From Nitrospirota bacterium (lineage in GTDB: Bacteria > JACPQY01), in contig JACPAV010000005.1 of the NCBI GenBank assembly GCA_016180645.1, positions 124,001-186,916 on the forward strand: a stretch of 62,916 nucleotides of DNA, given 5' to 3'. Within the stretch, counting starts at the first letter, position 1. Each line of letters begins with the position of its first letter. The position numbers were made by a program, and so were the translations under genes. The notes beneath the pieces are model-generated. The model made no database searches. It saw nothing but the letters and a program-made list of their open reading frames with translations, and was not told the origin of the DNA. Shown here piece by piece: positions 5,222 through 21,746 of the stretch.

Positions 5222-6556
5222 AGGCGGGAGTCTAGCAGACCGAAAACCATTCTCAAATAGGCCGTCGGCACACGGCCGGCCGGTTGGAAGAACAGAGGCA
5301 TGGCGAGCCGCTCCCTCCATCCCCCGATATCCCCTCGGAAGGCCGCATCTCTCAAGAAATCCAGCCGGCCGGCGAGCGGAAGATCCTCCTGCACAACGGC
5401 CTGCAATGGCGCCGGGTACCGTACCTCCCACCAGCGGGCCACCTGGCTCAGAGCGAACGCCGTGATCCCGGCCATTCTGAACCGCCGCACGTCATCTGCC
5501 CAAGCCTTCCACTCCACTCGATCCCTCACGGCGCGGAAAACATACATCACATCCACGAAATCCGAGAGCATCGAGAAAGAGTTGGTGAAGGCGTGAAGGA
5601 TGATGTGCAGGAAGGTCATCTCGGGGCTTAGCCGATGCCCCTTGAGGTCCGCGTTCTTCCACACGTCGTATTCAGCAAGGTCGAAATCGAATCGCGCGTG
5701 CAGTCCGAACTTCTCGGCGCAGAGTCCCCAGTGGAGATCGACCGGGGGCACCCGCGACCCGTTTGATCGGTGCGAGAAAGTCGCCTCATGGAATCGATTC
5801 AGCTCCGGCAGGGGGTGGAGAGGCAAGTAGCCCAGATCGCGGAGGATATCGGCGGCCTTGGGAACATCCTCGCGGTAAACCAGCAAATCGACATCCCCCG
5901 TCGGCCGGCATCCCAAATCGGGAAAGGCCAACTCGCAGAGACCTACGCCCTTGAGCGCCAAGCACGGCACGTGCCGCCGCGCCATGAACCGGGTTACTCG
6001 TTCTTCCGCGGCCAGGATAAAAAGATTCTTCGCCAGGGTGGTCCTCCGGACGGCCTGCGGAGTCGGCTGGAGGCGGCCACCGGCCCTGAGAATGCCACTC
6101 GCGATCTGCCGGGCAATCAGCGGTTGAACACGCTGCCGTCCGGCCGTATTCCATTTGTCCAGCTCCACCACCGACCCCCGCTGTGGATCGACTGCAAGGA
6201 GTGTCAGGAGCGACCTAGAGCCTATCCCAAAACGTTTCGCGGACCCTGAAGGGCCCGCTACGGAGAAATCGCTTTTCCGCTGTAGTGGAGCCTTTAGGCT
6301 CCGCGAAGCCCGCTCCGGTTCCGTCAGGTTTTGGGATAGGCTTCTAGCTCGACTTTTGCCATTTTTTGAAAGGTTCATGTTGGTCATGATGCGTAGGGGA
6401 GGGTCTTCAGACCCTCCCGACAAGAGGGAGCATCTGAAGATGCTCCCCTACTTTCTCAAAATTCACGGCGTGGAAATGGCCTTCCCTCGTGAAGTGATGT
6501 TCACACAGCATGGAAAAATGGCAAAAGTCGAGCTTAGGGTCATCCTCGGCTGCCAT
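5218..6556 (-). CDS. Nucleotidyltransferase family protein (NTP_transf_5-like, RiPP-associated); 5' end interrupted by inserted elements
   Basis: LKGVGL, RPTGDVDLLV, VDLHW motifs; removing 6219-6537 joins ATG 6556 in frame (MAAEDDPRSLLTL...); the surviving frame could start at ATG 6387 or 6378. Confidence 0.8.
6219..6347. mobile_element. MITE-like element 1
   Basis: Perfect 15-bp inverted repeat AGCCTATCCCAAAAC (6219-6233) / GTTTTGGGATAGGCT (6328-6342), CTAG on both flanks, internal GTAG hairpin. Confidence 0.7.
6346..6537. mobile_element. MITE-like element 2 carrying a REP doublet
   Basis: Perfect 21-bp inverted repeat AGCTCGACTTTTGCCATTTTT (6346-6366) / 6514-6534; TAG at both ends. Confidence 0.72.
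6393..6451. repeat. GTAG-type REP doublet, copy 1
   Basis: GTAGGGGAGGGTCTTCAGACCCTCCC...GGGAGCATCTGAAGATGCTCCCCTAC; identical reverse-complement copy at 28660-28718. Confidence 0.85.
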
Positions 6557-6616: not shown

Positions 6617-6747
6617 CCCCGCGTGACCCCGCACCCACCTCAATGGAAAAGTGGACAAGTGGACGAGTGCGCGCACATCACGGATGGCCGCTGCTTCACC
6701 GCCCGATCACCCGGACACTGGGCCACCTCCAAAAGGATAGCTGCAAA

Positions 6748-7875
6748 GTGACAGGGGATCTGCTCAACCACCATCGGGAATATCTCGATGACCGCATCGC
6801 GCAAGCCCTGTACCGGAGGGCCATTCGTCGAATCGTTCGACCGGGCGATGTCGTTGTCGACCTCGGAGCGGGCACGGGCATCCACTCCATGGAGGCGTGT
6901 AGAGCGGGGGCGAGGAAGGTGTATGCCCTGGAGTGTGGAGACATGGCCGTGCTTGCGAGGGACATCATCGGCGAATCACCGTTCAGCCGTCGAATCTCCG
7001 TCATTCACGAGCACTCCTCATTCGTGCGGCTGCGGGAAAAAGCGGACGTCATCATTTCCTACCTCGGCCCCAGCGACCTCGTTCGGTCGCTCCCGCCGGC
7101 CCGCGCGCGCTTCCTGCGCCGGGGTGGGCGAACCATTCCCTCCCACCTCCGGTTCCGGTTCGGCCCCGTGGAGGCGCCGGACGTCTACGCGGCGCGAATT
7201 GATGCCTGGAGAAGGCGGAGGGGCGCGGATTTCACGGCCGCGCGCCGATGCGCGGCCAACACGGCCCACACGACCCATTGGCTTCCCTCCCACTTTCTCT
7301 CTCGACCTCGCCCCGCGTTCACCCTCCCGTTGGATCCAGGCGTCCACCGGCCCTGGAAATCCAACGGCACATTCGTTTCCGCGCGCGACGGAACGCTCCA
7401 CGGGATCGGGCTCTGGTTCGAGTTCCGGTTGGCCCGGGGGATCTGGCTCTCCACGCGACCCCCGCTCCGGCTGTCACCCGCCGTCCACAGGCACGCCTTT
7501 CTCCCGCTCGAACGGCCGCTGCCGGTGCGGGCCGGGGAGCGCCTGCGGCTCCGTCTGACTCTCCTGCCCGGATTTGAGTGGATGTGGAGATGGAGCGTCC
7601 ATTCCTCATCTCATGCGCTTGCCGATCAGTCGTCCTTGGATGGCCTGCTCCTTTCAGCGGATCGAATTCAGGCCGCCGAGGGCTCCGCCCGCACAAGGCT
7701 GAACGCCCGCGGTCAAATAACACAGTTCGTGCTTGAGAGGTGCCGGAAAGGCCACACCCTGGATCAGATCACCGCGGCCTTGAGCCGCCGCCCTATGACC
7801 CTCTCGGGCAACCGCCGGGAGGCGCTCGACGTCACCCGAAACATTCTCGCCGATTTTGCCCGGCGCCCCAGGTGA
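6748..7875 (+). CDS. SAM-dependent methyltransferase, PRMT-like fold, with C-terminal winged-helix/RRE-like extension
   Basis: HREYLDD...YRRAI, VVDLGAGTG, ARKVYALE, GGRTIP, LHGIGLWF; GTG 6748 with AAGGA upstream. Confidence 0.8.
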   Translation: MTGDLLNHHREYLDDRIAQALYRRAIRRIVRPGDVVVDLGAGTGIHSMEACRAGARKVYALECGDMAVLARDIIGESPFSRRISVIHEHSSFVRLREKADVIISYLGPSDLVRSLPPARARFLRRGGRTIPSHLRFRFGPVEAPDVYAARIDAWRRRRGADFTAARRCAANTAHTTHWLPSHFLSRPRPAFTLPLDPGVHRPWKSNGTFVSARDGTLHGIGLWFEFRLARGIWLSTRPPLRLSPAVHRHAFLPLERPLPVRAGERLRLRLTLLPGFEWMWRWSVHSSSHALADQSSLDGLLLSADRIQAAEGSARTRLNARGQITQFVLERCRKGHTLDQITAALSRRPMTLSGNRREALDVTRNILADFARRPR

Positions 7876-8714
7876 AGCCGGAAACCGGGGTCCTGCTTCG
7901 CGAACTGGACTCGAACGGGGAGGTCTCCTTCGAGGCTCGGGAAGGCCGGGGAGGGTACCGACTCCGATGGCCCCGGCTCGCCACCGTCCACATCACGAAG
8001 CGCAAGCAGCGAGTCACCGTGATCCCCGAGCGGGGATCCCCCCGCGCCTCGCTTGCTCCCATCCGCCGCATCGCCCGGGCGTATGCGGTCAGCCTCGGCG
8101 GCAGGCAGCCTCTCCACGCCACCGTGCTCACCGGTCACGGGGGAACGCTCGCCCTCCTCGGGACGCCCGGCGCGGGAAAATCGACACTGGCTCTGGCCAT
8201 GCTCGACGAAGGTTGGCGCCTGGTCACTGACGATGTGCTGTTCTACCGGACGCATTCCCGCGCGATCCGACCCGTTCTGCGTCTCCCGATGCTGAAGGTC
8301 AGGCCCGACGGCATCGCGCCGTTCCCGAAGTTCCCCTCGATCCCGCCCCTGAGGCTCCGCGGCAAGCCGCGCTACGATCCTCGTTACGGAAAACTGATGA
8401 TTCCCCTTCCGAAAATCTCTCACGGCGGAAAGATCGATGTGTTTGTTCGCCTGCGCCGCTCGCGCAAGGGGCACATCAGCGGCCGGAGGCTCTCACCGTC
8501 CCAATCCACCTTGAACCTCATCGTCGCCATGTTCAATGGAGCTCTGCGCCCCCGTCGCGTCCGTATCCGGCAAATCCTGGAGGCCGCATCCCTCGCCTCC
8601 AAGGTGCCCGTGTGGGAGCTCCGATATCCGACGGGAAAGAGACATCTGAAACGCGTGCCGGAGGCGCTGCAAGGCATCCTGCGACAAACTCAAGAGGGCC
8701 GAAGCCGGGACTGA
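7872..8714 (+). CDS. HPr-kinase-like (lasso peptide kinase family) protein K1
   Basis: LHATVL, Walker A GTPGAGKST, LVTDD; GTG overlaps the upstream TGA. Confidence 0.85.
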   Translation: MKPETGVLLRELDSNGEVSFEAREGRGGYRLRWPRLATVHITKRKQRVTVIPERGSPRASLAPIRRIARAYAVSLGGRQPLHATVLTGHGGTLALLGTPGAGKSTLALAMLDEGWRLVTDDVLFYRTHSRAIRPVLRLPMLKVRPDGIAPFPKFPSIPPLRLRGKPRYDPRYGKLMIPLPKISHGGKIDVFVRLRRSRKGHISGRRLSPSQSTLNLIVAMFNGALRPRRVRIRQILEAASLASKVPVWELRYPTGKRHLKRVPEALQGILRQTQEGRSRD

Positions 8715-8720
8715 CCACGC

Positions 8721-10385
8721 ATGGGCGGGATCTGCGGCATCCTCAACGCTACCGGCCACGCCTCGACCGGGGATCTGCACACGATGCTGTTCATGCTCTC
8801 CCACCGCGGCATCGGCGCTCCCGGCGCGTGGTCCTCCACCCCCGCGGCGCTCGGTCATTGGGATTCTCACACCCTTGACCCGGAACGTCGGGGGGTCCAG
8901 CCCTTTCACGACGGTTCCAACGGCCCTTGCATCGTCTTCGATGGGCGCCTCGACCACCGGGATGCCTTGCTGTCCGATCTGTGCCTCGATCGCGCAACGG
9001 ACGTTGAACTCGCGCTGGCCGCCTACTTGCGTTGGGGAGACGATGCATGGACGCATCTCCTCGGCGACTTCGCGCTGGCCCTCTGGGACCCGCGCGAGGA
9101 CTGCCTGCTACTGGCGAGGGACCCCGTCGGCGTCAGGCCTCTCTTTTACTCCGTTTGCCCGACCCGATTCGTTTTCGCCTCGGAGGCCAAAGCGATTCTG
9201 GCTATGACGGATGTCGTTCGCGCTCCGGATCCGGAGAGCATGGCGGAACTGAAGCGATATCGTTTCCGCCGTCATGAGTACACGTTTTTCCAAGGTATCC
9301 TCCGGGTGCGCCCCGGCCAGAGGCTCAGAGTCGACCGGCGAGGCATCGACCGGCGCGCATTCTGGAAGCCCGTGTGCTCCCCTCGCCCGAACGGCATGGA
9401 GCCGGAGGAGGCCCACAACCAATTCAGAAGACTCTTCATCGAGGCGGTGCGAGACCGGCTTCCGGCCCGCGGAACGGCGGCGATCATGCTGTCCGGAGGT
9501 TTGGACTCCTCTTCCATTGCGGTGGCCGCCTCCCATGCCCGCGGTCTGAAGACGACCGGCTGCCCCGCGCGTCTGGAAGCCTACACGCTGCTCTGGAAGG
9601 ATGGAGAGGACGAACGACGCCTGAGCCGGATCGCGGCCGAGAAGGCCGGCCTCCACGTATCCCCTGTGATGTTGGACGATGTGGAACTCGATCCCACCCC
9701 CGCGTTGGTCTTCGAACACGAGACGCCGCTTCTCAACCCCATCGACCAGGTCTACGGCAAGCTGTACCGCGCGGCGGCCGCAGCCGGTCATCGCATCCTT
9801 CTGAACGGAGAATGGGGAGATGACCTCCTCCACGGCGGGGCCTTCCTGGCCGACCTTCTCGTCTCGGGGCGCTGGAAGGCATTCGCAAGGCAGATCCGGG
9901 GTTTCCGCGACAACGAGGGGATCCCCATTCGCTCGATGTTGCGCTACCTCCTCGAATGCCTTCTCCTGCCGCGCCGGGATACCCCGAAATTCGCCACCCA
10001 CGCTCAAGAGCAAATCTACGAAGCGGTCTTTGTCCCTCTCAAACTGCTGGCCATCGAGAACCTCGAACGCGGGGCCGCCGCGCATGGCATCGAAATCAGA
10101 CTTCCCTATCTGGATCTCCGGCTCATCGAATTCCTGTTTCGGGTCCCCGGCGAATGGCTCGCTGAGGAAGGAATCGGCAAACAACCGCTTCGGAAAGGTT
10201 TGGCCGACCTGCTGCCCGGGGAGATTTCCGGACAGCCCCGCAAAGACAATACGCCCTTGTTCCGCGTGCCCTCGACCTTCCCGGCGTCAGGACGGGAGGG
10301 CGATATGAGAGCCTACTCTTCCGCCTGGTCCGCCAAGGCGGAAAGCGAATGGCGATCCGTCTGGTTCGGCCGGCCGGCTAAGTAG
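8721..10385 (+). CDS. Asparagine-synthetase-like lasso cyclase C1
   Basis: HRG, DGRLD, GDFALALWD, ARDPVGVRPL, PP-loop LSGGLDSS, RLPYLD; no Cys at position 2. Confidence 0.85.
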   Translation: MGGICGILNATGHASTGDLHTMLFMLSHRGIGAPGAWSSTPAALGHWDSHTLDPERRGVQPFHDGSNGPCIVFDGRLDHRDALLSDLCLDRATDVELALAAYLRWGDDAWTHLLGDFALALWDPREDCLLLARDPVGVRPLFYSVCPTRFVFASEAKAILAMTDVVRAPDPESMAELKRYRFRRHEYTFFQGILRVRPGQRLRVDRRGIDRRAFWKPVCSPRPNGMEPEEAHNQFRRLFIEAVRDRLPARGTAAIMLSGGLDSSSIAVAASHARGLKTTGCPARLEAYTLLWKDGEDERRLSRIAAEKAGLHVSPVMLDDVELDPTPALVFEHETPLLNPIDQVYGKLYRAAAAAGHRILLNGEWGDDLLHGGAFLADLLVSGRWKAFARQIRGFRDNEGIPIRSMLRYLLECLLLPRRDTPKFATHAQEQIYEAVFVPLKLLAIENLERGAAAHGIEIRLPYLDLRLIEFLFRVPGEWLAEEGIGKQPLRKGLADLLPGEISGQPRKDNTPLFRVPSTFPASGREGDMRAYSSAWSAKAESEWRSVWFGRPAK

Positions 10386-10437
10386 CAGAGCGTTCAGGCT
10401 CTGCAAGCAGATGCGCGCAAAGACTCTTGTGCGCATC
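10385..10437. terminator. Two tandem hairpins between convergent C1 and precursor A1
   Basis: GCAGAGC/GCTCTGC (10385-10404) and GATGCGCGCAA/TTGTGCGCATC (10410-10437); no clear U tract. Confidence 0.45.
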
Positions 10438-10438
10438 C

Positions 10439-10633
10439 TTAGTTATGGTTGCTGAAGGCGGTCTTGTTCGTCGGATCTTTTTCGATGGATCCCCCTCCCC
10501 CGCGCGTCAACGCCGTCAGATCGCCGTATTCAATCAGCCGTGGAGCGGCGTAGCGTTGCCGAAGGCCGGTTGGACCGGCACTCCGGAGGGATCCAACGCC
10601 TGTGCCCTTCGAGCGTCTCCGCTTTTGAACCAT
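10439..10633 (-). CDS. Lasso peptide precursor A1 (64 aa)
   Basis: Leader YAAPRLIEYGDLTALTR (YxxPxL...G...T-2); core GGGGSIEKDPTNKTAFSNHN with acceptors E7/D9; GGAGG upstream. Confidence 0.88.
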   Translation of the reverse strand: MVQKRRRSKGTGVGSLRSAGPTGLRQRYAAPRLIEYGDLTALTRGGGGSIEKDPTNKTAFSNHN

Positions 10634-12330
10634 GCTTCCTCCCAAGAGTTTCTCGCTGCCGCCCGCCAGAGCCTCATGGCCCCGCCGGGAGTTCCGTTCT
10701 TGTAGCCACATTCGGCCAGTTTGTTCGCCCAGAAAGCCGTGGCCACCGCCTTGCTGCGCCGCGCCGCGGTTCGCTCCGGAAGGATGCCTCTCAAACCCTC
10801 ACGAAGGAGCCGTTTCCCAACCCCTGCCCGAATCCGCATCCCGGCAGGCATCCTGAATACCAGTTCGACCAAACGCCGGTCCAGAAAAGGAAAACAAACT
10901 TCCACCCCTTGATACGCGGCGCCCATGTCGAACGATTCCAGCGTCATCGTATGGTAGCAGCCGAAGAGGGAGCCGTAAAGTTCCCTTTGATTGCACGTGG
11001 GGAAGACCGGACCTCCGGTGTTGGGCAGAAGCAGATACCGGAGCGCCCGCATCAACGCCGCCCTCCAATTCCCGACGTCGCTTTCCCCGATCCGTCGGAT
11101 CTCCCGGTAGAACTCCACCGGCCGGCCGGCCCGGATCAGGTCCCCAAGAAAACTCATGCCGGCCATCATCTGATCGCCCCAGAATCCGGTGAACACCCTT
11201 CGCGCGCCCCGCTTCGCCGCCGCCCCGAACATGCCGACGTAAAGATTCGGATCCTGCACCTCCACGAACGGCGACTCCAATTCGACCGCAAGCCGGTCCA
11301 GATGGTCCGTCGGCCGGATATCGTCCGCGTCCACCACCGCATTCGGAAGCTTCAGACACGCCGCGGCCGGCCCAAAATGTTCCCTCTCATTCTCAAACGC
11401 GCCAAAAACGACCGACTGTGTGTGCAGGCGGGATCGGTCCTCACCTTGTGCCACGTGCGAAGCGGCAGCGGCGATGGAGGTGGAGTCCAAGCCTCCCGAA
11501 AGCGTGAAGACAACGTTTCCCTCCTTGGGAATTCTCCGCCGAACGCCCTCCACAAATACCTTTCGGAAACGGCTCAACCACGCGGACTCGCTCAAACCTC
11601 CCATGGGCGGCCCGTGGGGAGGAACCCAATACGTCTCGCACCGCAAACGGTCCTCCTCTACGCGCATTCGCTCTCCGGGCAGAACGCGCCGTATCCCCTC
11701 GAAGAAACTGTTCTCCAGTGCTCGGAACTTGAACCGCTCGTATTCCGCCATTTTCAGTTCGCTTGGCCGGCACGGGACCCCCGGCACGGCCAGAATGGCT
11801 TTGGCTTCCGACGCGAAGATGAATCTTCGCCCATCCCGATAGTAGAAAAGAGGCTTGACCCCCAGGGGATCTCGGGCCAGCATGAGGCGGCCGCGTGGTC
11901 CATCCCACACCGCCAGAGCGAAATCCCCGAACAGCCACTTGGGGAGGTCCCACTCGAACTGCCGATACGCCGCCGCCAGCGCGCCTTCGGTGGTTCTCCT
12001 CAGATCCGCCGACGAGGCGGCCGTGTTCGAGCGGCGCGGGAAACCCTCATGCCCGCGTGCGCTGCCTTCGCGCCCTCGCCCCGCCGCGCGGCTGATCACA
12101 TCCACGTTGTCGATCCGGCCGTCCATCACCATACTGACCCCATCGGAGCTCAGCGGGCGGAAGGTCGTCTCATCGACCACCATGAGGGCGTGGACGAGTC
12201 CAACGGGGCCATCGCGAACGATCTTCAACCCGTCGGGCGCCCGGTGCCGAAGGGCATACCCCATCCGCTCCAAATGATCCGCGGGAGCCCCGCGGCCGTC
12301 CACCTGGAGAATACCGGCTATGCCGCTCAC
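10534..12330 (-). CDS. Asparagine-synthetase-like lasso cyclase C2
   Basis: GTG start (M)SGIAGIL, HRAPDG, DGRIDN, LSGGLDST, FPFLDRRLVE. Confidence 0.87.
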   Translation of the reverse strand: MSGIAGILQVDGRGAPADHLERMGYALRHRAPDGLKIVRDGPVGLVHALMVVDETTFRPLSSDGVSMVMDGRIDNVDVISRAAGRGREGSARGHEGFPRRSNTAASSADLRRTTEGALAAAYRQFEWDLPKWLFGDFALAVWDGPRGRLMLARDPLGVKPLFYYRDGRRFIFASEAKAILAVPGVPCRPSELKMAEYERFKFRALENSFFEGIRRVLPGERMRVEEDRLRCETYWVPPHGPPMGGLSESAWLSRFRKVFVEGVRRRIPKEGNVVFTLSGGLDSTSIAAAASHVAQGEDRSRLHTQSVVFGAFENEREHFGPAAACLKLPNAVVDADDIRPTDHLDRLAVELESPFVEVQDPNLYVGMFGAAAKRGARRVFTGFWGDQMMAGMSFLGDLIRAGRPVEFYREIRRIGESDVGNWRAALMRALRYLLLPNTGGPVFPTCNQRELYGSLFGCYHTMTLESFDMGAAYQGVEVCFPFLDRRLVELVFRMPAGMRIRAGVGKRLLREGLRGILPERTAARRSKAVATAFWANKLAECGYKNGTPGGAMRLWRAAARNSWEEAWFKSGDARRAQALDPSGVPVQPAFGNATPLHG

Positions 12331-12361
12331 AACACCCCCATCGCCACTGGATTCGAAAGAA

Positions 12362-12655
12362 CTATCGGAGGCGAACCAACCCCTTGCCCGCAAGCGTCCG
12401 CGCCAGCGTGAGGATGTCGCGTTGGGCCCGCTCCGCCGTTACGCGGTAGTTCCGCAACAGTCTCCTGCCGATCGCCTCAACGGCCTCCCCGCGCGCGATC
12501 CCTTTCCATATCAGCGCCGCGGCATCTTGGAGACCGTAATACCTTCCCTTCCGGAGGTCCAGAAGAACGATTTCTCCTCCCACTTCGCGCCAGACCACAT
12601 CCGGGGAGATCATCGCCCGCGATCCTACGCTGATTCTCCTTTTGTGATGCGCCAT
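12362..12655 (-). CDS. Lasso B1 / PqqD-family RiPP recognition element
   Basis: WREVGGEIVLLDLRKGRYYGL...IW...L...GLV pattern. Confidence 0.9.
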   Translation of the reverse strand: MAHHKRRISVGSRAMISPDVVWREVGGEIVLLDLRKGRYYGLQDAAALIWKGIARGEAVEAIGRRLLRNYRVTAERAQRDILTLARTLAGKGLVRLR

Positions 12656-13147
12656 TCAGACCGCGCTCGTATTCAGGCGGCTGCCGGCGCGCAGCCGGCT
12701 GCCCTTGAGGGTTTCGCGCGAGGAGGACGCGGCGACTGCCAGAAGGGGCTTCACTCGGCCGAACCGTCCGGCCCGCATCACGTCACGGCTCCCCTCCCGC
12801 ACCCAGGCATGCCCGTGCAGTCGACCTCTCTCCGGCCTCGCTGAGAGTCGCAACTCGACTCCAGGCGCCCCTCCCAAGAGCCAGTAGGCCGACAGTGCCC
12901 GGCGAAGGCAGGAACGCTCCCCCGGCACGAGGGGGTCCACCCTTTCAATCCAATGCGTGACCGCCGCAACATCCGAATCGACCGGTGCAGCGTGGTCGGC
13001 CCGCCATTGCAAGGCCCGGAGAATGATTTTGAAGGACACGACTCGGAGGGCCAGTTCGCAGACTCCCACGGCGGCGAGAGCGCGCACCGCGCGTCGCCTC
13101 TCGCGGGCTTCCAGGCGCCGGAAGCGCTGAAGCCGACCACGGCTCAT
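12656..13147 (-). CDS. Lasso B2 leader peptidase (transglutaminase-like)
   Basis: SCLRRAL catalytic Cys, HAW motif; ATG 13147 overlaps the ABC stop. Confidence 0.88.
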   Translation of the reverse strand: MSRGRLQRFRRLEARERRRAVRALAAVGVCELALRVVSFKIILRALQWRADHAAPVDSDVAAVTHWIERVDPLVPGERSCLRRALSAYWLLGGAPGVELRLSARPERGRLHGHAWVREGSRDVMRAGRFGRVKPLLAVAASSSRETLKGSRLRAGSRLNTSAV

Positions 13148-14925
13148 GCCGATGATCGCGCCAGTGCGATCGGCCGAGTCTGGCGTTCCTCGGCCCGGAC
13201 ATGCAGCATCCACAGGTGGTGATAAAGCCCTCCACGCGCCAGGAGATCGTCATGCGTCCCTTGTTCGATGATTCGGCCTGCATCCATCGCGAGAATAATA
13301 TCCGCGTGTCGGATCGTGCTCAAGCGATGCGCCACGGCGAGAACGGTCCTCCCCCTCCCCCATTCGGCGATCGCGTCCTGCACTCGCCGGTCCGTCTCGC
13401 TGTCCAGAGCGGACGTCGCTTCATCCAGAAGGAGAACCCGGGGGTCCTTCAGAACGGCCCGCGCGATGGCAATCCGCTGCCGCTCTCCCCCGGAAAGCAT
13501 CACCCCCCTCTGTCCGATCACGGTGTCCAGCCCTCGCGGCAGCGCCCGGATGAATTCCGTGACGCACGCGATTCGACAGGCATCCTCAATCTCTTTCTCG
13601 GTGGCGTCCAGCTTTCCATAACAAAGGTTTTCGCTCACCGTTCCCCCAAAGAGGATCGTCTCTTGAGGAACCCACGCGATCTGGCGATACAGACTTTCCT
13701 TCCGAACCGTCCGAATATCCTCGCCGTCCATCTCGATGCTCCCCGCGGACGGTTCGTAGAACCCGTGGATCAGTTGGATGAGAGTACTCTTCCCCCCGCC
13801 CGTCGGACCGACGACCGCCGCCACGCTCCCCGCCGGAATGTCCAGGCTCACGCCTCGAAGCACCGGGGGACCGTCGGGGTAGGAAAACTCGACCTCCCTC
13901 ACACGAATTCGACCTCGCAGGCGTGGAAGGGCTCTCGCTTCGGTCGGCTTCGTCGGGTCTCCCGGTGTCTCCAGGAGCGAGAGCACACGCTCCGAGGCGC
14001 CTTGCGCCTCCTTCAGACGACCCACAAGGCTGGTGGCGGTGATGAAGGGTCCCATGAGGAGACCGCCATACAGGGCGAAGGCCACCAGATCTCCCGCGCT
14101 CATCCCCCCCTCGATGACCTGCACACCTCCGTACCACACCATCCCCGCCGCTCCCATCACCCCCAGGAGCGTCAGCCCCGGGGCCAGGATGGCATTCACC
14201 GCCGCCCTGCGGAGAGCAAATCGGACCCCTTCCCACACTTGGGTCCCGAACCGTTCCGCCTCGAATTCTTCCCGTTGGAACGATCGCACGGCGCGGATGG
14301 AGGAGAGCGCTTCCTCCGCGGTGGAAAGCGCCTCGGCCGAGCGATCATGGTAGTCGCGCGAGAGCCGCCGCATTCTCCGGCCGGACCACTTCGCCGCCAC
14401 CACAACGGCCGGGACGACCGCCAGAACCCAGAGCGAGAGGCGCGCGTTGAGATAGATCAGCAGGGCCGTCGCCCCCGAGAACGTTACCGCATGCCTGGCC
14501 AACTCCGAAGGCACGGTTTCCAGGAAGCTCTGGAGGGCGCCCACGTCGTTGGAGAGGCGCGACACGAGCTCTCCCGTCTTGTGACGCGAGAAATAGTCGA
14601 ACGGTTGCGCCTCCAACCGCTCGAAGAGCCGGACCTTGAGCCGCGCGCCCACCCGCTGCCCGAACCGAACAACCAAGTAGGCATGACCCACTCCGAATCC
14701 GGCCTGGAGAATGTAGAGGGCGCCGACCACGGCCATCACGCCGGGAAGCGCGGCGAGATTCTTCTCCGAGGCGATGACATCCACCAAGCGCCTGGCCTGC
14801 CACAAAAGAACCAGATTCGCGCCGGCGCCGAGCATCTGCAGGGCCGACGCCGCCAAAAGGGAGGGGGTCTCGGGCCGAACGAACGGAACGAGACTGCGCA
14901 GAAATCCCGGCAAACTTCCGGTCAA
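13144..14925 (-). CDS. ABC exporter, fused permease/ATPase
   Basis: TM domain, GPTGGGKST, LSGGERQR, LLLDEATSALD. Confidence 0.95.
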   Translation of the reverse strand: MTGSLPGFLRSLVPFVRPETPSLLAASALQMLGAGANLVLLWQARRLVDVIASEKNLAALPGVMAVVGALYILQAGFGVGHAYLVVRFGQRVGARLKVRLFERLEAQPFDYFSRHKTGELVSRLSNDVGALQSFLETVPSELARHAVTFSGATALLIYLNARLSLWVLAVVPAVVVAAKWSGRRMRRLSRDYHDRSAEALSTAEEALSSIRAVRSFQREEFEAERFGTQVWEGVRFALRRAAVNAILAPGLTLLGVMGAAGMVWYGGVQVIEGGMSAGDLVAFALYGGLLMGPFITATSLVGRLKEAQGASERVLSLLETPGDPTKPTEARALPRLRGRIRVREVEFSYPDGPPVLRGVSLDIPAGSVAAVVGPTGGGKSTLIQLIHGFYEPSAGSIEMDGEDIRTVRKESLYRQIAWVPQETILFGGTVSENLCYGKLDATEKEIEDACRIACVTEFIRALPRGLDTVIGQRGVMLSGGERQRIAIARAVLKDPRVLLLDEATSALDSETDRRVQDAIAEWGRGRTVLAVAHRLSTIRHADIILAMDAGRIIEQGTHDDLLARGGLYHHLWMLHVRAEERQTRPIALARSSA

Positions 14926-15095
14926 TCTCGGGTCTTGACGCAGCTCGCGTTCCCAACCGTGCGGCAGGTGAAACCCGGAGATCGCGAGGAGTCACAGACG
15001 ATCGCCAACGCCTCGACCATCTTGCTGTAGACGAGTTCGGGTTTCTTATACGGCTTCCGGCCTATCGGTGATTTCCGATCTTGATTCTTCATCAT
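14922..15095 (-). CDS. RiPP precursor A3 (57 aa, Cys-containing; not in ORF track)
   Basis: Hand translation MMKNQDRKSPIGRKPYKKPELVYSKMVEALAIVCDSSRSPGFTCRTVGNASCVKTRD; YxxPxL leader; starts 13 nt after the rSAM stop and its TGA overlaps the ABC TTG. Confidence 0.85.
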   Translation of the reverse strand: MMKNQDRKSPIGRKPYKKPELVYSKMVEALAIVCDSSRSPGFTCRTVGNASCVKTRD

Positions 15096-15108
15096 TCGAT
15101 CCCTTCGG

Positions 15109-16245
15109 TTATCCGGCTGTTGAATTGTCGCATGTTACCTGTCCGCAGGAACATTCGCTGCGGTTTCCAGATCCCTCCGTCAGCCCCGCGGCTCGCAGGG
15201 GAGCTGAGGTCCTCCCCTCTTTGCTCTGAACGGCCTGATACACAACCTCCGCCTGCTCACAACAGGTCGGCGAAGGCCCCTTGAGATCCCCGGTCTCCAG
15301 ATGGGCCACGCCGGTGCATCGGCTGCAATAATCCTTCACGGAGCAACTCCGGCAGGTTTTCAGGTCCCCGAATCGAAGCGCGCGGATCTGCTTCAACTGT
15401 TCTTCTCCCCACAGATCTCCGAAGGAGCGTTCCCGCAGGTTTCCGATGGCCACCCGCATCGCCACACACGGCATGAGATCTCCATAGGGAGAAATGTACG
15501 CGGAAGACGACCCCGCGCCGCACAGCGGATCGTCATTCTGATAGTCCCTGAGCACAAACTCTTCCGCAAATCCGGGGGTTGTCTCCTTGATGAAGCAGGC
15601 GAGCTCCGGAGGCATGAGACGGAGGCTTTGCGGCGATCGGTCGCCGTTGTCCTTCGGCACGATCGAAAGATCGCTTCGCAACTTTGCGCCGATCTTTTCC
15701 CCCAAGGCCATGACGTCATGGTACTGATCCTGATTCTGTTTCATGATCGGCATGTTCATGTACGTTCGGACGCCCCGTTCATTCAAGAGGCGAATTCCCC
15801 GCACGGACTTCTCGAATGAACCCTTCCTGAGCGTGATCGAATCGTGAATGTCCGGATGCGCTCCATAGATGCTCACCAGAACCGCGAGGGGCTTCCAAGA
15901 GGCGATTTCGTCGGCCAGCGTTCCGTTCACCATGGTCGCAGTCGTCAGCAGGCGAAGGGCGAAGCCCAGTTCGCGCGATCGCCGGGCGATCTCGATGAAA
16001 TCTCGCCGCATGAAGATCTCCCCCCCGCTGAATGTGATGAACAGCGTGCCCGCACTCGCGAGCCCCTCCAACACGCCATACACCTGATCCGTCGTCAATT
16101 CCGGCCGGTCCATGACCACGCGGTAGCAATGCACGCAGTCCAGGTGACACACGTTCGTGACGTCCCAGTGCACGGTGAGAGGGATGGCACGCTCATGCGC
16201 CTTGTCCAGAATCGTCTCGTAGTAGTCCAGAGTCTTCACGGCCAT
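15109..16245 (-). CDS. Radical SAM/SPASM peptide maturase
   Basis: CHLDCVHC, SGGE, SPASM CGAG...ISPYGDLMPC...CRSC...YCSRC. Confidence 0.92.
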   Translation of the reverse strand: MAVKTLDYYETILDKAHERAIPLTVHWDVTNVCHLDCVHCYRVVMDRPELTTDQVYGVLEGLASAGTLFITFSGGEIFMRRDFIEIARRSRELGFALRLLTTATMVNGTLADEIASWKPLAVLVSIYGAHPDIHDSITLRKGSFEKSVRGIRLLNERGVRTYMNMPIMKQNQDQYHDVMALGEKIGAKLRSDLSIVPKDNGDRSPQSLRLMPPELACFIKETTPGFAEEFVLRDYQNDDPLCGAGSSSAYISPYGDLMPCVAMRVAIGNLRERSFGDLWGEEQLKQIRALRFGDLKTCRSCSVKDYCSRCTGVAHLETGDLKGPSPTCCEQAEVVYQAVQSKEGRTSAPLRAAGLTEGSGNRSECSCGQVTCDNSTAG

Positions 16246-16246
16246 G

Positions 16247-16537
16247 TCATGTGCCCCCTTCGGCAACCAGGAGTTTCTTGGAGGTAAGGGTGGCCAGCAG
16301 TTCTTCCACGTCTTTCAGCGCCGTCTCCGCGTCCACCTCGAAGGCGTCGCTGAGTCGTTGGGCCATGGCGCCGGCCGTCATCGAACCGTCCGCCAGCGAC
16401 CACACAAAACTTCCCGTCTCGTTCAGGATGTGAACCTCCTGTGTCGAAGGATCGACGATCACGGCTTCTCCGTCCACGATCCGATGCGCCACATCGGGGG
16501 AGCGGCGGATCGTGGCTACGCCATTCCCCGCGCTCAT
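16247..16537 (-). CDS. PqqD family protein (second RRE)
   Basis: RIVDGEAVIV...LNETGSFVWSLADG...DVEELL. Confidence 0.9.
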   Translation of the reverse strand: MSAGNGVATIRRSPDVAHRIVDGEAVIVDPSTQEVHILNETGSFVWSLADGSMTAGAMAQRLSDAFEVDAETALKDVEELLATLTSKKLLVAEGGT

Positions 16538-17262
16538 GCCGTGGCCTCCTCGAGAAACGGCTCGATGAGGTCACTCAAGTTCAGCGTCAACTTGAAGGCC
16601 GGTACCCGTTCCAGAAACCGCAGCATCCGTTCCATCAATTGGTCCGGAGTCACCGCGGCGCCTTCCACCTGGGGGCGCAGGAGGAGGTCCGCCACGGCGC
16701 GCGCGGGCGAGAGTCTTTCGCGCCTGGATTTCTCCCCTTGCGCGAGCACAAATACCGCGTGGACGGGGTACCTTGGACCCTCCAGCGCCACGGGGGCCCA
16801 GGCCAGAGGACGTGAGTCCGTGAGCCCGTGAGCCCGTGAGCCGGAAGGATGGATGCAGACCAGGTCGTCGTGGAGAATGGGCCGGGCGAGGCGCGAAAGC
16901 GTGGTGGTCTTCCCCGCTCCGGAAGGGCCGCAGAAGAGGGTGGCTTCACCGTTCTTCATGGCGGCTCCGGCATGCAGGACGAAACCGCCCTCCCTATATG
17001 CAAGCACGGTCCTCACGATCCGAAAGGCGTTCGTGCGCCCGAAGGGCTCAAATCCCGGCTGCACGTTGAACTTCGCCAAACCGGCCTCCCAGTCCATCCG
17101 GCCCGCATAGTGCTCGGTCTGAACGACGAGCGAATGGGTTGAATCTTGAATGACCGGGATGGCCGCCCCCGAATCCGGCTCGGCCGAGATCACGATCTGC
17201 ACGGCCCCTGCCCTCGTACCCTGCTCCGAATCAAACCCTCTCACCTCCCATGGCACCATCAT
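16534..17262 (-). CDS. HPr-kinase-related P-loop protein K3 (rSAM-associated type)
   Basis: VLHAGAA, GPSGAGKTT, ILHDD. Confidence 0.75.
   Translation of the reverse strand: MMVPWEVRGFDSEQGTRAGAVQIVISAEPDSGAAIPVIQDSTHSLVVQTEHYAGRMDWEAGLAKFNVQPGFEPFGRTNAFRIVRTVLAYREGGFVLHAGAAMKNGEATLFCGPSGAGKTTTLSRLARPILHDDLVCIHPSGSRAHGLTDSRPLAWAPVALEGPRYPVHAVFVLAQGEKSRRERLSPARAVADLLLRPQVEGAAVTPDQLMERMLRFLERVPAFKLTLNLSDLIEPFLEEATA
16811..16842. repeat. Intragenic 8-bp tandem repeat (CGTGAGYC) x4
   Basis: cgtgagtc cgtgagcc cgtgagcc cgtgagcc. Confidence 0.85.
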
Positions 17263-17443
17263 AGGAGAAGATCACCCCGGTGTCCAACCATGGATGGTGC
17301 GGCACCGATCCTGCCAAGCGAGCCAGGGAAGGCGAGCGCTGAAGATCGGGGCCAGCCATGGATGGTGCGGTACTTGGCGATACAAGGCAGACAGGAAGTC
17401 TGCCCTTTCAACTCTCTCGACCCGGTTGTGTTATCCCTCTCCC

Positions 17444-18271
17444 ATGCGGTATTCAAGCTCGATGCCGGGAGTCTCAAGCAACGGGAGCAAGCGCGTGCTG
17501 GCCCGCCACAGGTTTCCCAGCGGCCGGATTGGATTCGAGGCCTTCGAAAACCGGCAGCGATACGAACTCCGGTGGGCGGGGGCTGCGCGCGCCCTTGTGC
17601 CGAAAACCGGCCTACGCGCGCGGGTCATTCCGCAGCCCAACGCCCGCCCCATCACGCTGGCGGTACTCCGGCATATCGTGGCGGCCTATGCATCGAGCCT
17701 GAGGGGAGTGGAATCCCTGCACGCCACGGTCGTGTCGAATCATCATGGCGCGATCGCTCTACTGGGACCCTCAGGTGAAGGAAAATCGACGCTCGCGCGC
17801 CACTTCATGATGCGGGGTTGGACCCTGCACACGGACGACATCCTCTACCTCAGATTCTCCCAACGTTCCGTGTGGCCTGCCCGCCGCCGCGCCTGGTTCA
17901 AGGTCGCCCCGGAGTCAGCGCTCCGTGCGCGCGGGGACCGGGACTATGACCCGAACTTCGGAAAGCGAATTACCCTTCTCCCGCCTCCTAAAGCGGCCAA
18001 GCCCATTCGGGCCTTCATTCGGTTGAGCCGCCGGCGCGCTTGCCGAATTCATGCCACACCCGTGAGCCCATCCCAAGCAGCCCTCCACCTCATGGCCAAC
18101 GCCTACAACGACATTCTTTGCCCACCCCCCGTCCTGGCGCGTCAGTTCCGTTGGTCCGCCCGGCTGGCCCAAGCGGTCCCGCTCTGGCAGCTCGAGTACC
18201 CGTCGGGCACACGCCACCTGGGTCGAATCGAGCTGTCCTTGGCGAACCTGCTCAAAAGCCTCCCACGGTGA
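17444..18271 (+). CDS. HPr-kinase-like protein K2 (paralog of K1); start uncertain (17444 or 17462)
   Basis: YELRW, LHATVV, GPSGEGKST, LHTDD, YDPNFGK, LEYPSG; colinear with K1. Confidence 0.83.
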   Translation: MRYSSSMPGVSSNGSKRVLARHRFPSGRIGFEAFENRQRYELRWAGAARALVPKTGLRARVIPQPNARPITLAVLRHIVAAYASSLRGVESLHATVVSNHHGAIALLGPSGEGKSTLARHFMMRGWTLHTDDILYLRFSQRSVWPARRRAWFKVAPESALRARGDRDYDPNFGKRITLLPPPKAAKPIRAFIRLSRRRACRIHATPVSPSQAALHLMANAYNDILCPPPVLARQFRWSARLAQAVPLWQLEYPSGTRHLGRIELSLANLLKSLPR

Positions 18272-19902
18272 CCGGAATCTGCGGGCTTCTCAGTCCCCGC
18301 CCTGAACAGGCCTCGGGGAAACTTTGGAACATGCTGTTCATGCTCAGCCATCGAGGAAACGGCATTCCTCAAATGATCCATCGGCCCCCGGCGGCTTTGG
18401 GCTTGCTTTCGCAAGACGCAACATCCAACAGAATATCTTTGCGGAGCCGTACGACATGCCTCTTCGACGGTCGCCTGGACAACCGTCGGGAGATGCAATC
18501 GGCCTTGAACACGCATGGAGCGACGGATGCCGACGTCGTTGGCGCCGCGTACGACCGGTGGGGACCCTACGCATTCCGAAAATTGAGGGGAGAATACGCG
18601 CTGGCACTCTGGGACCCGGAAAACCGGCGCCTGTATCTCGCGCGAGACCCGGTCGGTCTGCGCCCCCTCTACTATGCCTGCTCGCACGACACCCTCTCCT
18701 TCGCCACCGAGGCCAAGGCCCTGCTCAGCCTGCCTGACCTTCCTCGAAAGCCGGACACGGAGCGACTCCATGAAATGAACACAGGACGCTACCGATCAAG
18801 CGACCGAACCTTCTTCGAGGGCGTCCAAAGAATCGTCCCCGGCGAGTTCCTTCAGGCGACCCGGGAAGGAGTTGCGCGCGGGCGGCTGTGGGACCCCGAT
18901 CTCCGATCATCCGTCCGTTTTCCCTCCCCCGAAGGCTATCGCGCACAATTCCGCGAGCTGTTCTTCAACGCCGTGCGGCGGTGCATGCCGCGAAAGGGAA
19001 CCGTGGGCGTTCTCCTGTCGGGAGGCATCGATTCTTCCTCTGTAACCGCCGTTGCCGCCGAAATCGCGCGCCGTGAAGGATCGGGCGTTTCGGTCGAAGC
19101 CTTCTCGCTCTATTCCGACCGCTTCCCCGACGAGCGACTCTATTGCGAGGAGGTCGTTCGGACGGCCGGAATCCGGGGCCACGCCATTCGAGCCGACGAC
19201 ATCAGTCTTTCGCATGATCTGTCACAGCGGCTCTTTGAACAGGAAATCCCGCCCGTTCCGCCCGAAGCCAATCTTTTTGACCGCGTATACAAAGAGGCCG
19301 CCCGCCGAGGAGTGCGGGTGTTACTGAGCGGCCACTGGGGAGACCAGGTCATGCTGAGCCACGCTTTGCTCGCGGATCTCCTTGCCTCGGGTAGGTGGTT
19401 CGAAGCCTGGAAATATGTGCGCGGCTACCGTCGCCAGGATCGCGCCGCGGCAGGCCCCCTCCTCCGGTGCGCGGCGTCCTTTCTCGTCCTGCGACGACGA
19501 AGCACGCCGGACTTCCCCAGCCGCGCGCAAAAAGAGGTCTATGAAAACGTCTTCGAGCCGGTCAACGTGCTCTTCCGCGAAGCTCTTGAGCTCGCATCCG
19601 CCCACCGTGGCCTTCGGTTTCAGATGCCGTTTCTCGACCTCGACCTGATCGAATTCGTCTTGGCGATACCCGCCACGCAGCGGGTCAGCAACGGCGTCGG
19701 AAAACAACTGCTGAGGGAATCCCTGTCCGATCTCCTGCCCGCCAGGGTGCGCGAGCGAAAGGACAAACGGGACTACACGCTGTCCATTCCGCCCAGGCTT
19801 GCCCAAGCCGGATTCAGCGGCGACACCCCCGACGACCTTTCGGAGCACTGGTTCCGGCATGCGCGGGAGCAGTGGTCCAAAGCATGGTTCGACAACCCCT
19901 GA
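18268..19902 (+). CDS. Asparagine-synthetase-like lasso cyclase C3 (paralog of C1)
   Basis: GTG start (M)TGICG, MLFMLSHRG shared with C1, LSGGIDSS, MPFLD. Confidence 0.85.
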   Translation: MTGICGLLSPRPEQASGKLWNMLFMLSHRGNGIPQMIHRPPAALGLLSQDATSNRISLRSRTTCLFDGRLDNRREMQSALNTHGATDADVVGAAYDRWGPYAFRKLRGEYALALWDPENRRLYLARDPVGLRPLYYACSHDTLSFATEAKALLSLPDLPRKPDTERLHEMNTGRYRSSDRTFFEGVQRIVPGEFLQATREGVARGRLWDPDLRSSVRFPSPEGYRAQFRELFFNAVRRCMPRKGTVGVLLSGGIDSSSVTAVAAEIARREGSGVSVEAFSLYSDRFPDERLYCEEVVRTAGIRGHAIRADDISLSHDLSQRLFEQEIPPVPPEANLFDRVYKEAARRGVRVLLSGHWGDQVMLSHALLADLLASGRWFEAWKYVRGYRRQDRAAAGPLLRCAASFLVLRRRSTPDFPSRAQKEVYENVFEPVNVLFREALELASAHRGLRFQMPFLDLDLIEFVLAIPATQRVSNGVGKQLLRESLSDLLPARVRERKDKRDYTLSIPPRLAQAGFSGDTPDDLSEHWFRHAREQWSKAWFDNP

Positions 19903-19956
19903 TCGATCCTGCCCCCGGTCCGTGATCGCATTATCCTCCGATGGAACGCTCCTGCA

Positions 19957-20097
19957 TCAATCCGACCCCGTGGCCCTGGTTTTGTTCGTTTCACTCTTAA
20001 CCGTCCCCTTGGCCTTCGTCAGTGTCCGAAGGTCGCCATAGGCGATGAGGCGTGGCGCCTTGTAGGTTCTTCGCCGCTTCCTTTTGTTCCGAACCAT
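19957..20097 (-). CDS. Lasso peptide precursor A2 (46 aa)
   Basis: MVRNKRKRRRTYKAPRLIAYGDLRTLTK leader; core AKGTVKSETNKTRATGSD with E8 acceptor; GGAGG upstream. Confidence 0.88.
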   Translation of the reverse strand: MVRNKRKRRRTYKAPRLIAYGDLRTLTKAKGTVKSETNKTRATGSD

Positions 20098-21746
20098 ATC
20101 TCCTCCCAACGTTCTCTCGTGAAAGCCCTCCAAGGCCTCATGGCTCTCCCCACGGGCCGGCGTGGGAGCCCGGCTTCTTCCTGCATGGCCTCCCAGAAAT
20201 CGGTCCAATCGCCCTTGCCCTTTCGGCTGGCGATGAAATCCGGGAGGATGCCGGCCAAGCCATCCCTCATCAATCTTTTTCCGATCCCATCGCGCACCCG
20301 CTCTTCCGCCGGAACGGCGAACGCAAACTCCACCAGGCGCCTGTCGAGGAACGGATACCGCACCTCGATCCCGCGGAACGCGGCGCCCAGATCGGCCGAC
20401 TCGAGGGCCATCAGATTGTACAAGCCAAACAGGGCGGAATGCAATTCCCTCTGATTGCACGTGGGGTAGAAATGCCCGCCCAAGCCGGGAAGCACAAGAA
20501 ACCGCAACATCCGGCGGAGGCTTTCAAGCGTGCCGCCCGTGTAGGTGCGGCTGAGAATACGGAATTCCTTCCAAAGCGCCCCCCACTGCCCCGAGCGGAG
20601 CAGATCACCCAGGTAGCCGGTCCCCATCATGGCCTCGTCGCCCCAGAGACCCACCAGCAGAACGCGGCCGAGATCCGCCGCGCGTCGAAACAATCCCTCG
20701 TAGTAGTTGGGGTCGTACACTTCCACAAAAGGCGTTTCAAGTTCATACGCCAGTCTATCCACATGCTCTCTCAACCTGAAGGCTGAAGCATCCACCACGA
20801 TATTCGGCAGGTTCCACATCTCGGCCAGCTTCCCGAAATAGCGGGACTCATCCGGAAAACGCCCGGGCACGCCTGAAATCGTGTGCAGCCCAAGCCCATG
20901 CCCCCCCTGTCCATCCGCCCCGCGCTTCGCGTGGAGGGCGGCCGCCGTGATGGACGTGGAATCCAGGCCACCCGAAAGCGTGACCACCATGTCTCCCTTT
21001 CCGGGCATCCTGCACCGGACGGCCTCCATGAACAGCTTTCTGAATCGCCTGAGATACACGCGACGCCCGTCGAGCCTGATCGGTTCGCACGTTGGCGGAT
21101 GCCAGTACGAGGCGCGGAGGATCCTGCCTTTTTCTATCCCAATCGCCTCCGCCGGGAGAACCCTCCGAATGCCTTCGTAGAAGGTGAAATCCATGCCTCG
21201 AAACCGAAAGCGGTCATACTCCTCGAGCCTGGATTCGCACGGCCGACAAGGAACTCCGTCCACCGCCAGAATCGCCTTTGCCTCGGACGCAAAGATGAAC
21301 CGTCTCTCCTCCACCCTGTAGAAGACCGGCTTCACCCCGGCCGGATCCCGCACAAGCAACAATCTCTCCCGATTTGCATCCCAAATCGCGATCGCGAAGT
21401 CGCCCAGGAGCCACCGGGGGAAGTTCTCTCCCCAGCGCCCATATGCGCTCCAAACCACTTCCTCCGTCGTCTCCGCCCGATCCCCGAAGCGCCTGCGCAG
21501 AACCTTCTTCAAAAGGTCCGCATTGTCGATTCGGCCGTCCATGACCAGAGTGATCCCATCCCGCGAGATCGGACGCGGCGTGGTCCCGTCCACCTTCACC
21601 ATGAGATGACCGAGGCCCGCCTCCCCCCCCGCGAAGACGGATGAACCGTCCGGTCCACGATGGGCGAGAGCGTCCAGCATCGGTTGCAGGTTCATCTCGC
21701 CCACGAGCGTTCCGTCGAAATGCAGAATCCCGGCTATGCCGCTCAT
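20019..21746 (-). CDS. Asparagine-synthetase-like lasso cyclase C4 (paralog of C2)
   Basis: MSGIAGIL, HRGPDG, LSGGLDST, PTCNQREL shared with C2, YPFLDRRLVE. Confidence 0.87.
   Translation of the reverse strand: MSGIAGILHFDGTLVGEMNLQPMLDALAHRGPDGSSVFAGGEAGLGHLMVKVDGTTPRPISRDGITLVMDGRIDNADLLKKVLRRRFGDRAETTEEVVWSAYGRWGENFPRWLLGDFAIAIWDANRERLLLVRDPAGVKPVFYRVEERRFIFASEAKAILAVDGVPCRPCESRLEEYDRFRFRGMDFTFYEGIRRVLPAEAIGIEKGRILRASYWHPPTCEPIRLDGRRVYLRRFRKLFMEAVRCRMPGKGDMVVTLSGGLDSTSITAAALHAKRGADGQGGHGLGLHTISGVPGRFPDESRYFGKLAEMWNLPNIVVDASAFRLREHVDRLAYELETPFVEVYDPNYYEGLFRRAADLGRVLLVGLWGDEAMMGTGYLGDLLRSGQWGALWKEFRILSRTYTGGTLESLRRMLRFLVLPGLGGHFYPTCNQRELHSALFGLYNLMALESADLGAAFRGIEVRYPFLDRRLVEFAFAVPAEERVRDGIGKRLMRDGLAGILPDFIASRKGKGDWTDFWEAMQEEAGLPRRPVGRAMRPWRAFTRERWEEIWFGTKGSGEEPTRRHASSPMATFGH

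Follow-up and report, generated by a model that had tools for sequence, protein, structure and literature searches.

A lasso-peptide gene cluster of a Nitrospirota bacterium (JACPQY01) provides each of its two precursors with a private trio of enzymes, namely an HprK-like kinase and two paralogous enzymes of the asparagine (Asn) synthetase type that lack the cysteine at residue 2 (Cys2). This single cluster spans about 5.2-24.2 kb of the 62,916-nucleotide stretch analysed here (contig JACPAV010000005.1, positions 124,001 to 186,916; G+C about 62%; hereafter the window), and by all the sequence criteria tested it is a cluster of the kinase-type lasso family, which makes peptides that are ribosomally synthesised and then modified post-translationally (RiPPs). 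Lasso peptides are defined by one isopeptide ring and one cyclase. The arrangement described here suggests, tentatively, that a single core peptide is the substrate of both paralogues, which would form two amide bonds on it with the use of ATP. This reading is supported by the joint duplication of enzymes and precursor, by the retention of catalytic motifs, by the independent recurrence of the layout in Acidobacteriota, and by the finding of no second precursor.

Joint duplication of a kinase, two cyclase-type enzymes and a precursor

The window contains two modules (7872-12330 and 17444-21746), in each of which a kinase and a type-1 enzyme converge on a precursor lying 3' of the type-2 paralogue. 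An earlier note on this DNA had proposed that the two stretches share one layout, and gene coordinates and strands agree with this. In module 1, the kinase K1 (7872-8714, plus strand; TIGR04352, E 1.3e-12, under cut-off) is followed by the type-1 enzyme C1 (554 amino acids; 8721-10385, plus strand), and both face the type-2 enzyme C2 (598 amino acids; 10534-12330, minus strand) and the 64-amino-acid precursor A1 (MVQKRRRSKGTGVGSLRSAGPTGLRQRYAAPRLIEYGDLTALTRGGGGSIEKDPTNKTAFSNHN; 10439-10633, minus strand). A terminator-like hairpin with an 11-bp stem (10410-10437) separates the convergent stops of C1 and A1. In module 2, the kinase K2 (17444-18271, plus strand), whose stop overlaps the GTG start of the type-1 enzyme C3 (544 amino acids; 18268-19902, plus strand), converges together with C3 on a minus-strand set made up of a Wzc-like gene, the type-2 enzyme C4 (575 amino acids; 20019-21746) and the 46-amino-acid precursor A2 (MVRNKRKRRRTYKAPRLIAYGDLRTLTKAKGTVKSETNKTRATGSD; 19957-20097). 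A GGAGG sequence precedes the ATG of both precursors, by 5 nt in A1. C1, C2 and C4 were assigned from Pfam and NCBIfam searches, BLASTP, a tree and a motif alignment, and C3 from NCBIfam and the same three further analyses.

The kinase, both enzyme types and the precursor have been duplicated jointly, whereas the genes for leader handling and export are present in one copy each. These are the PqqD-type leader-binding protein B1 (12362-12655, minus strand; NF033530, E 5.1e-14, 52.2 bits, under the narrow 70-bit cut-off), the transglutaminase-like leader peptidase B2 (12656-13213, minus strand; NF033537, 42 bits against a cut-off of 33; PF13471, E 1.1e-10, 41.9 bits against 26), and the ABC exporter D (13144-14925, minus strand; ABC_membrane and ABC_tran). 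A genome search indicated that B2 is single-copy in the genome as a whole. A1 and A2 share the leader motif Y-x-x-P-R-L-I-x-Y-G-D-L-x-x-L-T-x, and their cores differ. Since the leader and the proteins that handle it are shared, whereas the enzymes were copied together with a core that has diverged, these enzymes would be expected to read the core, and the co-duplication makes it most likely that type 1 acts on the peptide itself.

The same pairing is found in a relative. In our collection, the GTDB phylum of the source genome consists of two species genomes, the source itself (G000) and G001, a contig of which is publicly labelled 'Nitrospirae bacterium'. G001 (84% complete) has one module (locus L013, 8623-13306; loci of the survey are given as L numbers), in which the kinase and then type 1 converge on a precursor 3' of type 2 and B1, so that neither type is missing from either genome of the phylum or from either module of the window (3/3 modules). 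The G001 module adjoins HD and Wzc-like genes, and its precursor appears to start with GTG or CTG rather than ATG. Neither B2 nor an ABC exporter lies beside it, and elsewhere in this 84% complete genome there is only a weak PF13471 match. Scans of genome contigs and metagenomes with a type-1 alignment gave no other close relative of type 1 (above 35% identity) besides G001, and returned 160 loci of a wider family, many of which combine PqqD, cyclase, HprK-like kinase, PRMT-like methyltransferase, PF14907 nucleotidyltransferase and a Wzc-like gene. The neighbourhoods of K1, K2 and the G001 kinase held no other precursor-like open reading frame (ORF), and none with the leader motif lay beside K1 and K2.

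The paralogues belong with lasso cyclases and retain their ATP/Mg motifs

The earlier division of the four enzymes into a C1/C3 and a C2/C4 type was well founded. Pairwise BLASTP identity is 39.5% for C1-C3 and 49.0% for C2-C4 but 31.2-36.7% across types (K1-K2, 40.2%), and the types form separate clades. All four proteins carry Pfam Asn_synthase and GATase_6/7 domains. Among NCBIfam models they match the lasso cyclase NF033535 best (273-329 bits, below its narrow cut-off of 525). They score 194-227 bits with the Asn synthase model TIGR01536 (cut-off 267.1), 120-143 bits with the XrtA/PEP-CTERM exopolysaccharide (EPS) amidotransferase model TIGR03108 (816.9), and 74-115 bits, short of the 300 demanded, with the albusnodin/ikarugamycin-type macrolactam cyclase model NF033561.

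In the alignment, residue 2 is Gly or Thr in type 1 and Ser in type 2, as expected from the earlier statement that none of the four has Cys2; the genome's own Asn synthases begin MCGIAG. Without Cys2 the enzymes should have no glutaminase activity. The SGGxDS PP-loop is present in all four, again as first noticed, and the GxWGD[DEQ] motif and the Lys of GKxxLR are likewise kept in both types. The synthetase domain of type 1 is evolving faster (36.8% mean identity versus 47.4% in type 2). The earlier note had also taken WEExWF as a mark of type 2. The motif is indeed present in C2 and C4; however, the GGAGG ribosome-binding site and the precursor ATG are embedded in its codons and account for it in part, and type 1 has a similar W..WF at its C-terminus. 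C2 overlaps A1 by 100 nt and C4 overlaps A2 by 79 nt, in another frame, and the overlapping tails are not conserved.

We built a tree of 91 Asn-synthetase homologues, comprising the four window proteins and 87 from related loci, 15 partial ORFs having been dropped beforehand (quick IQ-TREE, LG+G4, with supports from the Shimodaira-Hasegawa-like approximate likelihood ratio test, SH-aLRT). Type 1 (C1, C3 and the G001 copy; support 98) and type 2 (C2, C4 and the G001 copy; support 99) are sister clades with a joint support of 100, inside the lasso-type cyclases. C2 and C4 are mutual closest relatives (support 98), with the G001 type-2 copy outside. The genome's own Asn synthases, L094 and L095, whose scores of 499 and 440 bits exceed the cut-off for that family, form part of a separate clade (support 100), so that the four enzymes stand apart from these Asn synthases in a phylogenetic comparison of the kind that the earlier note had proposed. 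That note had also said that a grouping of C1/C3 with EPS-modifying amidotransferases would speak against its proposal. Instead, C1/C3 are sister to C2/C4, and L094, in the separate clade, is the protein that resembles an EPS amidotransferase (574 bits); tree placement and family scores together rule out this identity for C1 and C3.

The kinases, too, retain their catalytic motif. H82, G97, G100, G102, K103, S104, D120 and D121 are invariant in 8/8 aligned kinases, and K1/K2-type kinases match the catalytic motif spacing H...G..G.GKS...DD of BsfK, the spacing and numbering being those given in the portion of PMC10368454 consulted. A predicted complex of C1 with K1, run without controls, scored 0.20 against a mark of 0.32 and is taken as evidence in neither direction.

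Independent origin of a two-cyclase layout in Acidobacteriota

A similar layout is present in loci labelled Acidobacteriota, where Pfam scans gave the gene order B1-B2-Ca-A-Cb-K-MT-NT, in full in L019 and in parts in L029 and L038 (K being taken here from a separate locus survey). Ca forms a clade of its own (7 rows, support 100); the kinase-adjacent Cb (5 rows, support 100), not Ca, is nested among the cyclases of single-cyclase loci. Approximately unbiased (AU) tests rejected the joining of type 1 with Ca (p-AU 1.8e-6) or with Cb (3.7e-7), and with it a single ancient duplication shared by the two groups. By these sequence comparisons, the two-cyclase layout arose independently in Acidobacteriota.

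Both Acidobacteriota paralogues appear to be maintained. Ca and Cb occur together in 17/17 metagenome loci that are not cut by a contig end, and the four loci with one paralogue (three with Ca only, one with Cb only) are all interrupted by a contig end. With dS near 1, the ratio of non-synonymous to synonymous substitution (dN/dS) of Ca lies at 0.19-0.26 and that of Cb at 0.16, indicating purifying selection on both.

Other multi-cyclase layouts were seen in the survey. L022 and L047 have three cyclases, which in L047 (7707-13699) stand in tandem ahead of one precursor with a JmjC-like gene near; L167 and L168 have two tandem cyclases with a convergent precursor; and L046 and L063 have two cyclases with three to four precursors. 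In L120 (1-9640), two complete modules with one cyclase each (C-A-K-MT) stand in tandem and differ in their cores, so whole-module duplication happens without a second cyclase too.

Core peptides of the two-cyclase loci

Throughout the family, cores were delimited at a fixed distance past the leader glycine, the precursors of L020 (frameshifted leader) and L028 (partly masked) having escaped the motif search and been read by hand. A leader YxxPxLxxxG with Thr at position -2 is common to A1, A2 and the precursors of related loci. Both window precursors combine the YxxPxL...G leader with Asp or Glu at core positions 7-9, as lasso precursors do: A1 has Thr at -2 and the possible ring acceptors Glu7 and Asp9, and A2 has Thr at -2 and Glu8. 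If the core is counted as the final 20 residues in A1 and the final 18 in A2, the spare residues listed in the earlier note (E7, K8, D9 and K13 in A1; K2, K6, E8, K11 and D18 in A2) are correct. Cut at the fixed spacing, the G001 precursor has Ala at -2 and Glu8, and its core, like that of A2, has one acceptor only within the ring range.

A core pattern is conserved across phyla, in which x-K-G-G-x-x-x-[DE], an 8-residue ring, is followed by a Gly-rich stretch and then P-x-T. The Thr of P-x-T is the most conserved residue of the tail, and the Thr of x-K-T / P-x-T is the best candidate for the site of the kinase. The sequence P-K-T-[FW] is present in 14/15 distinct Acidobacteriota two-cyclase cores, with a span from its Lys to the C-terminus of 8 residues in 12 of these 15 cores and 9 in one, one being uncounted. 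The corresponding sequences are N-K-T in A1 and A2 and S-K-T in G001, with spans of 8, 8 and 7 residues. The cores of G001, L021, L029 and L119 have a single acidic side chain; therefore, a second activated peptide carboxylate, if used, must in these cases be the C-terminus. Indeed, the C-terminus is the sole carboxylate besides the ring acceptor that is common to every two-cyclase core.

Many precursors of the survey end in Cys-Leu (L024, L037, L041, L045, L053, L056, L066, L088, L099, L108, L121, L137, L142, L143, L152 and L174), and the genome loci among them (L024 to L088) also carry a PRMT/PrmA-like methyltransferase homologue. A1 and A2 have no Cys-Leu end, although the window carries such a methyltransferase.

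A model of two amide bonds on one core, and its alternatives

The pathway that we envisage would begin with B1 presenting the leader and the kinase phosphorylating a Ser or Thr of the core, perhaps the conserved Thr named above, after which B2 would remove the leader. One paralogue would then adenylate Glu7 or Asp9 of A1, or Glu8 of A2, and close the usual N-terminal isopeptide ring. We tentatively give this step to type 2, solely because its gene shares an operon with B1 and B2, immediately upstream of the precursor, and because it has evolved more slowly. Type 1, translationally coupled to the kinase, would activate a second carboxylate of the same peptide and form a second amide bond, so that the product would be doubly cross-linked or otherwise doubly amidated. 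Both paralogues look catalytic, judging from their intact ATP/Mg motifs and from the purifying selection on the Acidobacteriota pairs, and the provision of each peptide with two intact enzymes that activate carboxylates with ATP suggests two amide bonds. The earlier note had offered two roles for the kinase-coupled type, a second amide (for instance from Lys to a carboxylate) or participation in a heterodimer. The present data favour a catalytic role directed at the core, and the idea of a Lys-to-carboxylate bond meets a counterexample in L028. In its most specific form, the product would be a bicyclic, 'double-ended' lasso-type peptide, with an N-terminal ring of 7-9 residues (alpha-amine to Glu/Asp) and a mirror-image C-terminal ring joining the Lys side chain of K-T to the C-terminal carboxylate. 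The cores make this structure conceivable but, in our estimate, rather improbable; the second ring fits the 14 of 15 distinct Acidobacteriota cores that have the Lys, L028 being the exception.

Several observations weigh against two bonds on one core. The computations presented here do not separate two bonds from one, nor a second amide from a heterodimer. The two-cyclase locus L028 has P-R-T-F, the conserved Lys being replaced by Arg, while the single-cyclase loci L103 and L124 also have P-K-T, in cores very similar to those of two-cyclase loci. The Lys of K-T is thereby ruled out as an exclusive marker of two-cyclase loci, and in the sequences compared no core feature is restricted to them. 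Nor does a common scheme for the second bond fit the other multi-cyclase loci, since the cores of L167 and L168 have Lys3 only and those of L046 and L063 have no Lys. Ca has Ser for Gly in GxWGD. Finally, the groups used in the AU tests were named only after inspection of the tree, and the tree, envisaged in the earlier note as a comparison with known lasso cyclases, was one among Asn-synthetase homologues and holds no experimentally characterised lasso cyclase.

The main rival is a heteromeric cyclase, in which types 1 and 2, derived from a self-associating ancestor, have become an obligate hetero-oligomer and form no bond other than the one isopeptide bond of the lasso. We consider this unlikely, though a serious contender: the two types are sister paralogues, the paralogues always occur together (in the three modules of the window and G001 and in all 17 uncut Ca/Cb metagenome loci), and one cyclase handles similar cores in related loci. 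Moreover, the nearest solved relatives by sequence, which are Asn synthetases and a hydroxyamidotransferase, were deposited with at least two chains per entry, and we take these enzymes to be dimers. However, the full set of ATP/Mg motifs in both types after a long divergence (39-49% identity within types) would be unusual for a merely structural subunit. It is improbable, in our judgement, that the two enzymes are redundant or alternative cyclases, forming the same ring or rings of different size on one precursor, or with one of them differently regulated or decaying. The two acceptors of A1, Glu7 and Asp9, would suit such a division and so would the faster evolution of the type-1 synthetase domain; on the other hand, a single acceptor in ring range is available in A2 and in the G001 core, neither type has been lost from either genome of the phylum or from either module, and the independent Acidobacteriota pairs are under purifying selection.

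The second enzyme might instead be a tailoring ligase that uses an external amine, so that the C-terminus or an Asp/Glu is amidated with ammonia or the peptide is joined to another amine, in the manner of TsrC, ScdTA or PesC. Amidation or nitrilation of peptide C-termini by Asn-synthetase-like enzymes is documented, and ammonia is accepted by PesC, according to the part of PMC13060819 consulted. The C-terminus is the sole spare carboxylate in several cores, and the clusters often adjoin Wzc-like polysaccharide genes. Nevertheless, we regard this role as doubtful at best, since there is no Cys2 and hence no glutaminase activity, and since the paralogue branches within the lasso-type cyclases and not with amidotransferases, in a tree that was built without TsrC, ScdTA and PesC sequences. 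Least probable by far is that type 1 and the kinase serve a different substrate, another peptide or a polysaccharide, and merely neighbour the lasso genes. They do form an operon of their own on the strand opposite to the precursor, but the kinase neighbourhoods hold no further precursor-like ORF, the Acidobacteriota paralogues flank the precursor with all genes on one strand, and in characterised lasso clusters HprK-like kinases with this type of motif act on the precursor (PMC10368454, in the portion consulted). Of these readings, we retain that of two amide bonds on one core as a working model.

Other genes of the cluster

The minus-strand string that ends in module 1 runs in the order ScmC-like P-loop protein, 112-amino-acid ORF, radical S-adenosylmethionine (SAM)/SPASM protein, ABC exporter, B2, B1, C2 and A1. 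The genes at its head are the ScmC-like gene (16534-17262), the 112-amino-acid ORF (16236-16574) and the radical SAM/SPASM gene (15109-16266), all on the minus strand, the first and last identified by family search. The 112-amino-acid ORF has no family match and is unlike B1, which rules it out as a second PqqD. These three genes may modify the peptides further or form a separate RiPP cassette; a comparable pair of P-loop and radical SAM genes adjoins a lasso-type cyclase in L052.

The convergent plus-strand set of module 1 consists of a methyltransferase, K1 and C1, with stops and starts overlapping or almost abutting. The methyltransferase is PrmA/PRMT-like (6643-7875, plus strand; Pfam PrmA, E 1.3e-7), its stop overlaps the K1 start (GTGA), and homologues were seen again in related loci. 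Divergent from this operon lies a PF14907 nucleotidyltransferase of the lasso 'N' type (5218-6423, minus strand; Pfam NTP_transf_5, E 3.7e-33; start codon uncertain), a family also present in the Acidobacteriota loci.

Directly upstream of C4 is a gene for a Wzc-like chain-length/tyrosine-autokinase protein (21833-24160, minus strand) with a GNVR domain and 119 bits to TIGR01007 (cut-off 108). A Wzc-like gene adjoins the module in G001 too (L013, 14729-16999) and lies within 10 kb of 23/80 related genome loci, many of them from Acidobacteriota. In each of the phylum's two genomes an HD_5 gene (24211-25254 in the window) is found alongside it, and no glycosyltransferase genes were found near it within the window. 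The cluster is bordered by housekeeping genes, namely a thiamine pyrophosphate enzyme at 388-2028 and SurA and haem genes past 27.6 kb.

Discussion

The cluster resembles the kinase-containing lasso clusters of paeninodin, pseudomycoidin and Bradymonas bsf (A, K, N, B1, B2, C, D) in its split B1/B2, kinase motif spacing, PF14907 nucleotidyltransferase, ABC exporter, YxxPxL leader and Cys-less Asn-synthetase-like cyclase. Those clusters are described, in the partial accounts that we compared, with one cyclase; by contrast, the window has two paralogous cyclase-type enzymes per precursor, a duplicated K + C + C + A unit, an attached radical SAM/SPASM set and a Wzc-like gene. The novelty, as far as sequence allows it to be defined, is the pairing of cyclase paralogues for each precursor within an otherwise known kinase-type lasso family. 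A full-text literature search, including direct queries, and reviews gave no description of two cyclases per lasso precursor; supplements and some key papers, which may mention such clusters, were outside its scope.

The closest parallel is with the Acidobacteriota loci (L019, L029 and L038), which likewise have two cyclase paralogues flanking a single precursor, one of them coupled to a kinase, together with a Wzc-like neighbour and a similar core, x-K-G-G-x-x-x-D/E ... K-T. They differ in having arisen by a separate duplication and in having all genes on one strand with the precursor between the cyclases, whereas here the kinase and type 1 are convergent. Microviridin provides a possible analogy, in that two paralogous ATP-dependent macrocyclases, the ATP-grasp ligases MdnB and MdnC, each install a different cross-link on one precursor; unlike the enzymes of the window, these belong to the ATP-grasp superfamily, and their product has no threaded topology. 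TsrC, ScdTA and PesC, likened here by description only (from the part of PMC13060819 consulted), are also cases in which a member of the Asn synthetase family tailors a carboxylate of a ribosomal peptide, but they use glutamine or ammonia, whereas the window enzymes have no Cys2 and group with lasso cyclases in the tree.

The two-cyclase layout is frequent among Acidobacteriota in soil metagenomes and so is not limited to one rare lineage. The conservation of the core across phyla and the frequent Wzc-like neighbours hint at a physiological rather than an antibiotic role. The repeated pairing of intact paralogues points either to an overlooked second cross-link or to a heteromeric form of the cyclase, an enzyme whose structure and mechanism are poorly understood. 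A second cross-link would provide a new scaffold in a class of peptides much used for engineering, and a double-ended peptide, if real, would represent a RiPP topology that is new and has evolved two or more times.

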